Below, piece after piece: positions 57,338-64,000 of a stretch of 64,000 nucleotides of DNA (positions are counted from its first letter, which is position 1; each line of letters begins with the position of its first letter). Below the pieces are notes generated by a model, which ran no database searches, was not told the DNA's origin, and saw only the letters and a list, made by a program, of their open reading frames with translations. Source of the DNA: Blastocystis sp. ATCC 50177/Nand II (Eukaryota); the NCBI GenBank assembly GCA_039096935.1, contig JBBPEE010000035.1, forward strand, positions 620,001 to 684,000, read 5' to 3'. The position numbers and the translations under genes were made by a program.

Positions 57338-60300
57338 ATGGAATCCAATCGTGTTGGCAATAACGAGATTGTAGACGTGTTGGGAGAAGGGTATTCCAAT
57401 AGTTGGTGGATTAACGAATAGAGGCTACGGTGAGGTCTACAAAGCGTTGGACGTGAAGTCAAAGGACTACGTGGCTTTGAAGAAGCTTCATGCGGGTGTT
57501 CCATTTGATCGTTTGCAGAATGAAAGCAAGTTGCTGAAGGAATGCAATTCAAACTACATTGTAAGGTACAAGGACGTTATTTGGAATGAGAATGAACTCT
57601 GGGTACCCCGTGTGGCTGTTGATGATGCTGTAGATTGTGATGGAGTATTGCCGTTGCGGATCGCTTGCCGCTGTGATTCAAAGTGGCAATCGTTTGAATG
57701 AGGCTGAATTGCGTGACGTGGCGAGCTGCTGTCTGCTGGGATTGATCTACCTTCACGGGAAGAAGATCATTCATCGAGTGAGTGCATAGAAACGGAGTGA
57801 GCAGTAGGATGTCAAGCCAGACAATCTGTTTGTTTCGGAGAATGGGGTGATCAAGTTGGGTGACTTTGGCTTGGCGGTACAGTTGGAGCACACCAACTCC
57901 AAGAGAGACACGAAGTGTGGTACTTCATGGTACATGGCGCCCGAAACGTATGATGGGAAAACGACGTTGGAAAGCGACGTTTGGGCTCTTGGCATTTCAC
58001 TGATTGAATTGGCGGAAGGAAAGAACCCGTTCAGCGGTTACAGTGATATGCAGGTGAGCGCTGCTGGAGAGGGATGAAGAGTAGGTGATGAAGACAGTGA
58101 ACTTCGGCGAACCGCCTTCTCTTTCAAGCGAGAAGTGGTCTGCTGCGTTCGTGGACTTTGTGAACAAGTGTTTGGTGAGGGATGTGAACGAGCGGTGGAG
58201 TGTGGAACAGTTGATGAATGTGAGTGTTGTATGGGGAGAGTGATGAATAGCACCCCTTTGTGAGGGACTCCGTGGAGAGAATTCGGAATAGCGGCAATTC
58301 GGAGGCGTTGCTGGCGCTGGCAAAACGCATCAGCGACACGATGAAACAGCGCAGTAGTCAGACGCTGTCGATGAATCTTTCACCCAATACAGTGGTTGAG
58401 AGAGCATCTCCGGGAGTGTCGAGAATGAAGTTCCCCATTCTGAGAAACTACTCTTCAGACGGTTACTATTCTCTTCAAGAGATCATGGCGGAAAGAGAGA
58501 AGAGAGAGGCAGAATTGGTTGAACGCGAACGGAATAAAGTCGAAATCTCGAGCATGAAAGACCTGAAAAAGGCGAGTGTGGAGACTAGAGTGATTGAAGT
58601 ATTGCCGAATTGTTGCAATGAAGTGGAAACGACAGTACTGGATCTTAGTCGATTTGTGAATCTACAGGAATTCAGAGTACGTGACAATTGCTTTGAGAAT
58701 GTGAATGAAGTGAAGTTGATTGGAATGAAGATGTTGGAGAGTGTGATTGTTGGAGAGAATTGCTTCACGAAGAAAGAGAATGGTGGTAGTAAGGATCCAA
58801 TTGGTCATTTCTACGTGAAGAATTGTGAGAAACTGAGAGAGTTGAAGATTGGCCGTTGCTCTTTCGAGTATTATTCCGTGTGTGAGATTGAGAATGTCGG
58901 TAGTTTGGAAGTGATTGAAATGGGAGAATCAAAGAGGGATAGCTACACATTCTTTTATACTGCTTCATTGAGATTGAAGAGTGATTGCTCTGTGTTGAGA
59001 GTGATGAATAGACTTACCGAGTTTGAAATCACTTCTATTTGGTAATGGTTCATTCAATCAATGCTCTCATGTTGTATTTGAGGGTGAGTTGCTTGAAGTG
59101 AGAATGATGACTAGATTTGCCTGAATTGAAATCAATTGAGATTGAGAATGAATGCTTTAAGAATGTGAGTGAATTGAAGTTGATTGGAATGAAGATGTTG
59201 AAGAAAGTGCTGATTGGAGAGAATTGTTTCACGAAGAAGAAGAGTGATGATGATAAGAATGCATATGGATTGTATGTGAAGAGTTGTGAGTCATTGAGAG
59301 AATTGAAGATTGGTAATAATTCTTTTGAGGAGTATTCTGTGTGTGAGATTGAGAGTGTTGGCAGTTTGGAATTGATTGAAGTGGGAAATGAATGCTTTAA
59401 GAATGTGAGTGAATTGAAGTTGATTGGAATGAATGGATTGGAGAGGGTGTTGATTGGGCAGAATAGTTTCACGAAGTGTAAGAATGGTTATGGTTGGGAT
59501 ATAAATCGTCATTTCTATTTGAAGGATTGTGAGTTATTGAGAGAATTGAAGATTGGTCGTTATTCCTTCTCTGACTATTCCGTGTGTGAGATTGAGAATA
59601 TACCTTCTTTGGAAGTGATTGAAATGGGAGAATTGAATGAAGAGAGTAACAATTTCTATTATGCTTCCAAATTGGTTTTGAAGAGTGACTGCTCAGTGTT
59701 GAGAATGATGAATAGATTTGGCTAAATTGACTTCCATTCAGTTTGGTGATAGGGCATTCTGTAAGTGTTCTCGTGTTGCATTTGAGAGTGAATTGCTTGA
59801 AGTGAGAATGATGAGTAGATTTGCCTGAATTGAAATCAATTGAGATGGGAAGTGATTGCTTTAAGAATGTGAGTGAATTGAAGTTGATTGGAATGAAAAT
59901 GTTGGAGAGTGTGATTGTTGGAGAGAATTGCTTCACGGAGAAGAGTGAGAATGACAAGAATGCATATGGATTGTATGTGAAGAATTGTGAGAAACTGAGA
60001 GAATTGAAGATTGGTAATCATTCTTTTGAGGAGTATTTTGTGTGTGAGATTGAGAATGTTGGCAGTTTGGAAGTAATTGAAGTGGGAAGTGTGTGCTTTA
60101 GTAATGTGAGTGAATTGAAGTTGAAGAGTGATTGCTCTGTGTTGAGAGTGACGAATAGACTTACCGGGTTTGAAATCACTTCTATTTAGTGGTTGGGCAT
60201 TCTATAATTGTTCTCGTGTTGCATTTGAGAGTGAATTGTTTGAGGTGAGAATGATGACTAGATTTGCCTGAATTGAAATCAATTGAGATGGGAAATAATT

Positions 60301-62503
60301 GCTTTAAGAATGTGAGTGAATTGAAGTTGATTGGAATGAAGATGTTGGAGAGTGTGATTGTTGGAGAGAATTGCTTCACGAAGAAGAGTGATAAGGAATC
60401 ATATGGATTGTATGTGAAGAATTGTGAGTCATTGAGAGAATTGAAGATTGGTAATCATTCTTTTGAGGAATATTCCGTGTGTGAGATTGAGAATGTTGGT
60501 AGTTTGGAATTGATTGAAGTGGGAAGTGATTGTTTAAAGAATGTGAATGAATTGAAGTTGATTGGAATGAAGGGATTGGAGAGAGTGTTGATTGGACAGA
60601 ATAGTTTCACGAAGAAGAAGGATAACGAAAGGAGTACAGCACGGACTAGGAATCACTATCGTGCTGTAACAAAGAGAGTTGAATACCAGGGTGTATGTGG
60701 ATTGTATGTGAAGAATTGTGAGTCATTGAGAGAATTGAAGATTGGTAATCATTCTTCTGAAGAGTATTCTGTGTGTGAGATTGAGAATGTTGGCAGTTTG
60801 GAAGTAATTGAAATGGGAAGTGATTGCTTTAAGAATGTGAATGAATTGAAGTTGAAGAGTGACTGCTCAGTGTTGAGAATGATGAATAGATTTGCCTGTA
60901 TTGACTTCCATTCAGTTTGGTGATAGGGCATTCTGTTGGTGTTCTCGTGTTGCATTTGAGAGTGAATTGCTTGAAGTGAGAATGATGAGTAGATTTGCCT
61001 GAATTGAAATCAATTGAGATGGGAAGTGATTGCTTTAAGAATGTGAGTGAATTGAAGTTGATTGGAATGAAGATATTGGAAAGGGTGTTGATTGGAGAGA
61101 ATTGCTTCACGAAGAAGAAGAGTGAGAATGACAAGAATGTATATGGATTGTATGTGAAGAATTGTGAGTCATTGAGAGAATTGAAGATTGGTAATCATTC
61201 CTTTGAGGAGTATTCCGTGTGTGAGATTGAGAATGTTGGTAGTTTGGAATTGATTGAAGTGGGAAATGAATGCTTTAAGAATGTGAGTGAATTGAAGTTG
61301 ATTGGAATGAAGATGTTGAAGAAAGTGCTGATAGGGGATAATTGTTTCACGAAGAAGAAGGATAAGAATGATAAGAGTGTATATGGATTGTATGTGAAGA
61401 ATTGTGAGTCATTGAGAGAATTGAAGATTGGTTGTTATTCCTTCACTAACTATTCCGTGTGTGAGATTGAGAACGTGCCTTCTCTGGAAGTGATTGAAAT
61501 AGGAGGATTGGATAGATGGAGTAGACGGGACGATCAGCGTAGCGTTTTCTATCATGCTTCCAAATTGGAATTGAAGAGTGATTCTGGACGAATGAAACGA
61601 TGACTAGATTTGCCTAAATTGACTTCCATTCAATTTGGTGATTATGCATTCTATAATTGTTCTCGTGTTGCATTTGAGAGTGAGTTGCTTGGGGTGAGAA
61701 TGATGAATAGATTTGCCTGTATTGACTTCCATTCAGTTTGGTGATGAGGCATTCTATTGTTGTTCTCGTGTTGCATTTGAGGGTGAATTGTTAGAAGTGA
61801 GAATGATGAATAGATTTGCCTGAATTGACTTCCATTCAGTTTGGTAATAAGGCATTCTATTGTTGTTCTCGTGTTGTATTTGAGAGTGAATTGTTCAAGG
61901 ATGAGAATGATGAGTAGATTTGCCTAAATTGACTTCCATTCAGTTTGGTGATAGAGCATTCTGTTATTGTTCTCGTGTTGCATTTGAGAGTGAATTGTTA
62001 GAAGTGAGAATGATGAATAGATTTGCCTGAATTGACTTCCATTCAGTTTGGTAATAAGGCATTCTATTGTTGTTCTCGTGTTGCATTTGAGAGTGAGTTG
62101 CTTGAAGTGAGAATGATGAATAGATTTGCCTGAATTGACTTCCATTCAACTTGGGTATAGTGCATTCCAATTCCAGAAAGATGATGACTCAACGGAATTG
62201 AATATGCGAAGTGAATGATATGAAATGAAATAACAAATAGAATTGCCTAAACTCACCTCACTCACTACTACAAAATGCAGTGACACATTCCGCTATCCTC
62301 GTTCCATTACATTTGACAGTAGTCCCTTCTTCCTTCTTTTCAACTAGATATTCCTTCTTTGGAGACAGTTACTCTTCCTAATGCCTTTAAACAAGTCAGG
62401 AATGTCAACATTCACAGTGCAGCTTCATTCCCCGTATCACGTCTAGACACTCCATTTGCATTGCGGAAACATTTCATATTCAAGTCCTGTTGTTCCATTC
62501 TTT
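57338..62503 (+). CDS. STE20-like kinase fused to a long LRR-like tandem array, predicted C-terminal CaaX (CCSIL)
   Basis: 'LGEGGYGEVY', 'VALKK', 'IHRDVKPDN', 'DFGLA', 'GTSWYMAPE', then many LRR-like modules across phase-1 introns. Confidence 0.85.
58990..61600 (+). repeat. Higher-order tandem array (~450-730 bp modules: single-LRR exon + intron + long multi-LRR exon)
   Basis: ATTTGCCTGAATTGAAATCAATTGAG recurs at about 59115, 59819, 60262 and 60993, with near-identical flanking introns. Confidence 0.9.
61608..62210 (+). repeat. 103/104-bp tandem repeat: 72-nt LRR exon + 31/32-nt intron, 5 full copies plus a divergent sixth
   Basis: Unit starts at 61608, 61711, 61814, 61918, 62021 and 62124. 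Confidence 0.95.
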
Positions 62504-62657
62504 CCCCTGTTTTCTCCACACACTTCCGTTTTTCTCTTTCTTACGAACCACAAATCCCCCCTTTTTCCCCAATCCCCATCTTCTCCAAATTGTGGGCTCC
62601 CCCACCCACCCGTTTTTCCCCAAACTCTCTTCCTCTCCCCCTATTCACAAACACAAA

Positions 62658-64000
62658 ATGAGCTATATGATGGTACTACACATTTCTTCACTTCTCACAG
62701 CGTAGCAACCCCAAATCATCCTATTGAAGGATGGAACAGACACAAGTCAAGGCCGTGGCCAACTGATCAGCAACATCAACGCCTGCGAAGCGGTGGCGGA
62801 CGCTATTCGCTCTACGCTGGGTCCTCGCGGAATGGACAAGCTGGTGCAGACTACACAGAAGCCGGTGATTTCAAACGACGGTGCGAGCATTATGAAGCTG
62901 CTGGACATTGTGCATCCCGCCGCCAAAACGTTAGTGGACATTGCGCAAGCGCAGGACGCCGAGGTGGGTGACGGAACGACCACCGTCGTGCTGCTGGCCG
63001 CGGAGATACTGAAGAACGCGAAGGAGTTCATCAACGAGGGAATGCACTCCCAGGTGATCATTCGCGGCATCCGCGCGGGTCTGAGGAAGGCTCTGGAGAC
63101 GCTCAACACAATCGCCGTGACCATTTCCGACTCCAACCCCGAGGAGAAGCGCAAGATGCTGGAGAAGGTGGCGGGAACGGCGCTGAACTCGAAGCTGATC
63201 CGCTCGCACAAGGAGTACTTCGCGCCGATGATCGTGGAGTCCGTGTGCATGCTGGACCAGGATCTCAATCTGGGTCTGGTGGGAATCAAGAAGGTGCCCG
63301 GAGGCAGCGTGACGGACTCGAAGCTGATCCGTGGCGTGGCCTTCGAGAAGACCTTCTCCTACGCGGGATTCGAGCAGCAGCCCAAGTACTTCAAGAACCC
63401 CAAGATTCTGCTGCTGAATCTGGAGCTGGAACTGAAGAGCGAGCGCGATAACGCGGAAGTACTCACTCCACTCATCCATCACGATTAGATCCGCATCTCG
63501 CCGGAAGAGTACCAGAGCATCGTGGACGCGGAGTGGAAGATCATCTACGGCAAGCTGGACGCGTGCATCGCGCTGGGCGCCAACATCGTCCTGTCGCGAT
63601 TGCCCATCGGCGATCTGGCCACACAGTACTTCGCCGATCGCGGCGTGTTCTGCGCCGGGCGCATCGCCGAGGACGACATCAAGCGCATCGAGAAGGCCAC
63701 GGGCGCCCGCATCCAGAGCACGGTGTACGGCGTGGACGCCAAGGTGTTGGGGACGTGCGGCGTGTTCGAGGAGGTCCAGGTGGGCAGCAAGCGCTACAAC
63801 CTGTTCACCGAGTGCCCCGCCGCCGAGACCGCGACCTTCATCCTGCGCGGCGGCGCGGAGCAGTTCCTGGAGGAGGCGGAGCGTTCGATCCATGGTGGGT
63901 GCGCGATGGAGATGTGATGGACAGATTCGCTGATGGTGACCAAGAAGTGCATCAACAGCAACCGCGTGGTGGGCGGCGGCGGCGCGGTGGAAATGGCGGT
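62658..64000 (+). CDS. CCT7: T-complex protein 1 subunit eta, 3'-truncated
   Basis: '[27 protein letters not shown]', '[10 protein letters not shown]', 'GDGTTTV', '[13 protein letters not shown]'. Confidence 0.95.

Follow-up and report, generated by a model that had tools for sequence, protein, structure and literature searches.

A protein kinase gene of Blastocystis, the most common eukaryote of the human gut, contains five 72-nt exons in a row, each of which encodes a single 24-residue leucine-rich repeat (LRR)-like unit. The question raised by this locus is whether the array forms a variable recognition surface coupled to the kinase, as proposed in an initial annotation of the DNA, or whether it reflects near-neutral turnover of a repetitive sequence. 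The gene lies within a 64,000-nt stretch of contig JBBPEE010000035.1 from isolate Nand II, which was analysed as a whole and is referred to here as the window.

From the ATG at 57338 on the forward strand, the frame runs for 1,492 codons with zero stops once 22 introns of 29–32 nt are removed, and encodes first a kinase with its catalytic motifs, next a linker and finally 24-residue repeats over about 1,100 residues. The STE-like kinase domain occupies exons 1–5 (57338–58219; exons at 57338–57390, 57422–57602, 57634–57777, 57808–58053 and 58085–58219), and exon 6 (58251–58980) holds the end of the kinase, the linker and the first LRR-like rungs. Beyond this point lone 72-nt cassettes alternate with large LRR exons of phase 1/1 (59115–59684, which is multi-rung, 59819–60127, 60262–60858 and 60993–61577). 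All four of the lone cassettes first noted at 59012, 59716, 60159 and 60890 were confirmed: two (59012–59083 and 60159–60230) have a 5′ half of the family-standard type and two (59716–59787 and 60890–60961) a 5′ half of the array type. The tandem array follows (61608–62123, five units of a 72-nt exon and a 31- or 32-nt intron), and then the terminal cap exons (62124–62490; at 62124–62210, 62241–62318, 62348–62416 and 62447 onward). The forward-strand neighbour is a CCT/TCP-1 chaperonin gene (62658–64000; Pfam Cpn60_TCP1, E = 1e-68), which is outside the system and provides a synteny marker. In base composition the LRR gene is an AT-rich island (58000–62000; GC 0.37–0.41, in a window that is mostly 0.5–0.68) with a strong G-over-C skew (0.47–0.57).

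No stop of the kinase-LRR gene is encoded ahead of the CCT start, and the polyadenylation motif matches at its 3′ end are imperfect only. Stops created by polyadenylation have been described in Blastocystis (PMC5608401) and, because no stop is encoded before the CCT start, the stop of this gene may be made in the same way, which would fit that precedent. Across 62447–62661 the frame remains open for about 70 codons after the last exon, up to a TGA that overlaps the CCT start; the same is found in L006, the second allele described below.

The glycine loop, AxK, HRD, DFG and APE motifs of the kinase domain are all present, and single exons match Pfam Pkinase with E values of 9e-24 and 2e-9. A Foldseek search with the full model of a relative (P0033), whose kinase part is modelled at low confidence, gave GLK, MST2, MAP4K4 and MEK1 as top matches and kinases only among the matches listed. 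That the kinase is STE-like is supported by intact catalytic motifs in this gene and an STE-like assignment by Foldseek on the relative. The kinase exons, at least, are transcribed and spliced. A contig from X7, an RNA-type run (RNA by guess), joins kinase exons over introns 57603–57633 and 57778–57807 with zero mismatches; the second of these introns is also spliced out in metatranscriptome X14, and one X7 contig begins at 58251, where exon 6 starts. At a further joint in X7 (59787–59819) the 31-nt GT..AG intron after a lone cassette has been removed, in a contig whose source may be a paralogue. In the contigs of X7 and X14 no splicing of the five array exons was observed, nor any clear case of exon skipping; X21 and X22, with one record each, were left out. 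In the NCBI models of relatives, cassettes are joined at these exon boundaries too. The kinase starts within the first ten residues of the protein, no transmembrane stretch or hydrophobic leader is present in the 1,492-codon frame (best 19-residue hydropathy 1.19), and the kinase-LRR protein is predicted to be cytosolic.

The five array exons (61608–61679, 61711–61782, 61814–61885, 61918–61989 and 62021–62092) are in phase 1 at both ends. They are separated by GT..AG introns of 31, 31, 32 and 31 nt, with an intron of 30 nt ahead of the first exon and one of 31 nt behind the last. Tandem Repeats Finder reports a period of 103 with 5.3 copies and 89% matches (score 881), and a tandem-cassette pattern matched four times in the window and not once in 100 shuffles. 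Coordinates, phases and the 103-nt period all agree on what was first described, five tandem exons that were duplicated alongside their phase-1 introns, and these symmetric, repeat-length exons in tandem have the organisation of a one-repeat-per-exon system. The boundary originally placed at 62210 has to be moved, with the array itself extending over 61608–62092 and the 87 nt at 62124–62210 being the first terminal-cap exon, which is not itself a cassette. The residues that differ between array units were read correctly at the outset (DY/DE/NK/DR/NK, YN/YC/YC/CY/YC and K/V/E/K/E).

Structural models were those of two relatives, P0033 and P0123, rather than of the window's own spliced protein. 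In the AlphaFold2 model of the tandem part of P0123 (mean pLDDT 90, pTM 0.87) two tandem cassettes stack as rungs 24 residues apart, and pLDDT exceeds 90 around the cassette in P0033. Each modelled cassette is one rung free of helix: the main strand leads into a turn that holds two of the variable residues, the other two lie in a short strand, and a third strand follows. Each array exon is accordingly predicted to form one rung of a helix-free LRR solenoid. By secondary structure, the variable sites of both models come behind the main strand, in the turn and the short strand, and, because the rungs would be in register given their periodicity, the four variable residues are expected to stack as a stripe along one edge, beside the main sheet. 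The residues of the main β-strand, which is the usual binding face of LRR proteins, are invariant in the array. The longer variable loops of the large exons occupy the same place in their rungs as the variable residues of the cassettes. Exon 60262–60858 contains a long inserted loop, one of its rungs (60620–60700) being extended by about 19 residues that do not resemble the other loops.

The closest folds are the LRRs of the TSH receptor (Z = 13.7) and the FSH receptor (Z = 13.3), with rmsd 3.6–3.7 over about 180 aligned positions. TpLRR ranks ninth (Z = 11.9, rmsd 3.6, 170 aligned), beta-helices score similarly and the neighbouring folds include bacterial surface LRR proteins. With the domain model as query, Foldseek found nothing at E 0.001 or better, and an ESM Atlas search returned mostly unnamed clusters and one LRR_8/EndoS cluster. 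The repeats share the GxxAFxxC motif, which is the BspA motif, with the BspA/TpLRR (PF13306) and EndoS (PF23952) types, to which the large exons have weak Pfam matches. On exon 59115–59684, LRR_5 (BspA type) scores 29.9 bits against a cut-off of 27.7 and LRR_EndoS scores 28.7 bits, both barely over cut-off; LRR_5 fails on two exons, and LRR_EndoS reaches 35.2 bits on 60262–60858 and 38.7 bits on 60993–61577. Unlike either type, the repeats here have 24 residues and are fused to a kinase, and the glycoprotein-hormone-receptor LRRs score above TpLRR.

The cassette belongs to a very large family. The family amounts to 1,440 clusters at 50% identity. A search with one large exon returned 954 longer relatives, and the named relatives among the 120 listed are all Blastocystis hypothetical proteins (subtype 1 (ST1), Nand II or JDR). 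The cassette is a standard part of their C-terminal module, occurring in 37 of 135 family proteins examined as 52 copies, nearly always singly; by pattern, only one of these 37 (P0123) has a tandem pair, the pattern having missed a diverged pair in P0122. The N-termini differ: some are kinases, either intact or with altered motifs, others consist of different repeats, and one has a signal-peptide-like start. In four members (P0010, P0123, P0130 and P0135) the same LRR module is joined to a kinase with altered catalytic motifs, which lacks HRD or DFG and may be a pseudokinase. In P0023 and P0004 the module is repeated behind a Thr-rich stalk, P0023 also having the signal-peptide-like start, and this architecture suggests that surface or secreted family members exist. 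Two more members lie on the minus strand of the window. The first (21150–19850) resembles P0135 in its repeat-rich N-terminal part and has one cassette, of the family-standard type, near 20235; directly behind it, the other (19560–17700) is a kinase-LRR gene in which DVG replaces DFG, with a diverged cassette near 18144. The tandem-cassette pattern had no match in a collection of viral contigs, and the array-type cassette pattern none in a collection of genome contigs.

Variation at the locus was followed in metagenome contigs, a scan of which for tandem cassettes yielded 15 loci that, being selected for tandems, provide no estimate of frequency. Ten of these have a pair, one has runs of two and three, two start inside a preceding cassette, and the remaining two are L001, with at least five cassettes, and L006, with eight. 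L006 is a syntenic allele of the window locus, with the same cap exons, 6 mismatches in 137 positions of the intergenic stretch and 33 in 1,343 of CCT. Its CCT flank is 97.5% identical to the window, with 14 nucleotide differences and one amino acid difference in 241 CCT codons. It is the sole proven syntenic allele, whereas L001 belongs to the same subfamily and lacks flanks; both are short-read assemblies. One locus can therefore be compared directly, with five cassettes in the window and eight in L006, none of the eight being equal to any of the five, and the variation in copy number and content that the initial annotation had envisaged is observed between these two alleles. Every one of the 18 cassettes in the window, L006 and L001 is distinct, and the frame is intact in all of them. 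The 129 nt before the L006 array best match the window module ending at 59715 (7 mismatches, no gap) and not that ending at 61607 and, on this basis, larger LRR modules also seem to have been rearranged between the two. A cassette doublet found in L009 (5755–5930, gene strand), L010 and L011 is nearly identical in three assemblies, and some tandem cassettes are stable.

The cassettes of the window array also carry traces of how they arose. Their first 25 nt show 0–1 differences from the start of the next exon, the first of the caps, while their 3′ part is of the cassette type, and their 5′ ends are unlike those of family-standard cassettes. When the lone cassette at 59012 is set against two L001 array units, there are 12 differences in the 29 nt of the 5′ part and 3 in the 43 nt of the 3′ part. 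Among sites outside the variable codons, 23 of 55 pairs are incompatible in the four-gamete test, and units from the same array differ about as much (11.9 differences) as units from different arrays (12.3). Judged from these comparisons, the array cassettes are chimeras of two neighbouring exons with crossovers inside exons. Being mosaics with internal breakpoints, the cassettes are not simply swapped as whole exons, and neither whole-exon shuffling nor skipping appears to be required for the observed pattern. Copy-number change together with recombination among repeats, a further feature of one-repeat-per-exon systems, is found here in the difference of five versus eight, the four-gamete result and the mosaics. 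In the mechanism we propose, unequal crossing-over and gene conversion would take place between a cassette and the following exon, whose start is similar, and would add, remove and remix rungs. Breakpoints would fall inside exons, the intron would be carried along with its exon, and the phase-1/1 layout would leave every recombination product in frame.

Sequence change in the 18 cassettes of the three arrays is concentrated at codons 11, 12, 15 and 16, for which pN is 0.52 and pS 0.25. The other 19 cassette codons, which make up the scaffold, have a pN of 0.058 and a pS of 0.025, the array introns have a diversity of 0.11–0.14, and the codons directly flanking the variable ones show almost no silent change. 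The same four positions are the most variable (3.2–3.7 bits, all others <1.5) in a separate set, the 52 cassettes of named Blastocystis proteins, and the early impression of changes clustered at a few positions of a near-fixed scaffold holds in both sets. Seventeen of the 18 units have a 31-nt intron. In these, the first two positions of the four codons carry 15 of 24 possible extra alleles, the middles of the introns 7 of 42 (Fisher p = 3e-4) and the four-fold sites 1 of 27. A codon model calibrated on introns gave an omega of 12.6 for the four codons versus 0.85 for the scaffold, and a model with a free local rate gave 5.8 at the four codons (p = 0.009), each estimate resting on four codons and on one tree despite recombination, which can inflate omega on a single tree. 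Values of 17–76 from star-tree and no-intron models were set aside as inflated. Adenine mutagenesis of the DGR type was rejected, the second positions of the variable codons being nearly all purines (41 A, 26 G, 1 T) and not random. The array is apparently positively selected at four codons per repeat. Because silent differences are also raised at these codons, part of the change may have been imported by conversion from the large family.

The principal alternative is near-neutral turnover. Slippage and conversion would alter copy number, conversion would homogenise the scaffold, and four tolerant surface positions would drift or receive copies from the hundreds of paralogues, new specificities not being selected for at this locus. 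Such a process would find suitable material here, as 103-nt tandem units invite unequal crossover, the pool of relatives is very large, a scaffold omega of about 0.85 suggests weak constraint, and the elevated pS is at the variable codons themselves. It is harder to reconcile with an excess of amino-acid change over both the local silent rate and the intron rate, with the near absence of silent change in the adjacent codons, and with an intact frame in 18 of 18 cassettes. We consider it rather unlikely.

We instead favour, with a probability of roughly 0.58, the reading that the array is an expanded, allele-variable stack in a kinase-LRR gene and probably serves a cytosolic sensor as its variable binding surface, which would link detection of a quickly changing target to an STE-like kinase. 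Selection would favour new residue combinations at the variable positions, the target would be foreign, either a virus or an intracellular bacterium, and binding would switch the kinase on or bring it a substrate. Virus-like and bacteria-like particles have been reported in Blastocystis cells (PMC12835684). The invariance of the main β-strand and the predominance of single-cassette family members both count against a sensor, the near-identical doublet of L009–L011 speaks against a general pattern, and the presence of the same module in P0023, behind a signal-peptide-like start, argues against the module being specific for cytosolic sensing. An extended form of the idea, which we regard as unlikely, is an anticipatory intracellular receptor repertoire. 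Conversion and unequal crossover among cassettes in their hundreds, along with in-frame skipping of symmetric exons, would continually generate new kinase-coupled surfaces against viruses or endosymbionts in a single clonal population. If true, the repertoire would amount to a VLR-like strategy in a single-celled gut protist and would account for the large STE20/7 kinase expansion.

Other recognition functions could leave a similar trace. Fungal incompatibility NLRs have internally conserved repeats. Self/non-self recognition of a comparable kind between Blastocystis cells or genotypes, in which the repeat reads a polymorphic Blastocystis protein and not a parasite, would be expected to produce the same signature of homogenised repeats, few hypervariable codons and allelic copy-number variation, and a nearly complete toolkit for meiosis is described for ST1 (PMC5608401). 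On the other hand, we found no cell-fusion or incompatibility data for Blastocystis, and a module spread across so large a family, with several N-terminal domains, goes beyond the need of one incompatibility locus; we consider this explanation very unlikely. Less probable again is an exported protein of effector or adhesin-like type, with its variable face contacting molecules of the host or of gut bacteria and changing so as to escape or follow them. The weak BspA-type match, the bacterial surface LRR proteins among the fold neighbours, and the signal-peptide-like start and Thr-rich stalk of P0023 point in that direction, but this gene begins with a kinase and has neither a hydrophobic leader nor a membrane segment. 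Finally, an artefact of collapsed paralogues in the array or in the five-versus-eight difference is highly improbable. The contigs are short-read, similar paralogues are many, and exact repeats reach 94 nt within the window array and 133 nt across the LRR region as a whole. Against an artefact, no two units are the same, exact repeats reach no more than 49 nt in L006 and 55 nt in L001, long arrays occur in three assemblies and the frame is intact over 22 introns.

The sensor reading can be set against systems already described. One-repeat-per-exon LRR design is known from both brown algae and Tetrahymena, which limits the surprise of finding it here. Brown-algal ROCO and LRR-kinase genes have 72-nt LRR exons (Zambounis et al., PMC3341825; Teng et al., PMC11378527), and the Blastocystis gene shares with them a stramenopile host, one symmetric 72-nt exon per 24-residue repeat, four positively selected positions per repeat, recombination both intra- and intergenic, and a proposed immune role. 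The intron phase is 1 in the Blastocystis array and 2 in brown algae (PMC11378527), and the array introns, of about 31 nt and copied with the exon, also set it apart. The variable sites lie after the main strand in the Blastocystis models, whereas those of the brown-algal exons are on the concave face. For the LRR-kinases of Ectocarpus no shuffling is reported (PMC3341825), whereas this kinase gene varies between alleles. The supposed likeness to the repeat type of Ectocarpus ROCO genes was not borne out: the cassette is a helix-free LRR in the models rather than the β-strand/helix type of brown-algal ROCO proteins, and an N-terminal STE-like kinase takes the place of ROC-COR. Pfam searches with seven large exons, which make up most of the frame, and with P0033 and P0123 found kinase and LRR families only and no ROC-COR GTPase domain, what remains of the frame being kinase or repeat sequence. 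Nor do the cassettes fit the Type I LRR consensus with its helix (GxxPxxLxxxxxLxxLxLxxNxL), their own consensus being different and the relatives' models helix-free.

In Tetrahymena, unequal crossing-over has been proposed to yield alleles with more or fewer repeats in LRR genes built of 90-bp exons (Xiong et al., PMC6564038). These genes resemble the Blastocystis array in forming a protist family with tandem exon–intron units, one repeat per exon and a uniform intron phase. They differ in exon length (90 bp), in phase (2), in numbering thousands of genes composed mostly of such exons and in a link to a retrotransposon; Blastocystis has one cassette type, usually single, among large multi-repeat exons.

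For Blastocystis itself, literature searches found no description of LRR exon arrays. Gentekaki et al. (PMC5608401) list 58 ST1-specific STE20/7 kinases and leave their role open; the words LRR and leucine are absent from the main text of that paper. A supplementary table of PMC12129017 gives 204–404 LRR-superfamily entries in human-associated isolates versus 53–66 in tortoise isolates, with kinase counts too, and the terms 'LRR' and 'kinase' had no match in its main text. The gene studied here resembles the ST1 cluster as one of an expanded set of STE-like kinases, its exon 4 being 73–79% identical to four ST1 kinase-LRR proteins, and it presumably belongs to the cluster of 58.

The array is likely to bear on this unexplained expansion of Blastocystis STE20/7 kinases. 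The locus links the LRR and STE20/7 kinase expansions, and does so through a gene that changes at the level of alleles in both its repeat number and four residues per repeat. It offers a concrete candidate for cell-autonomous recognition in a gut protist and, in addition, a highly polymorphic strain marker.
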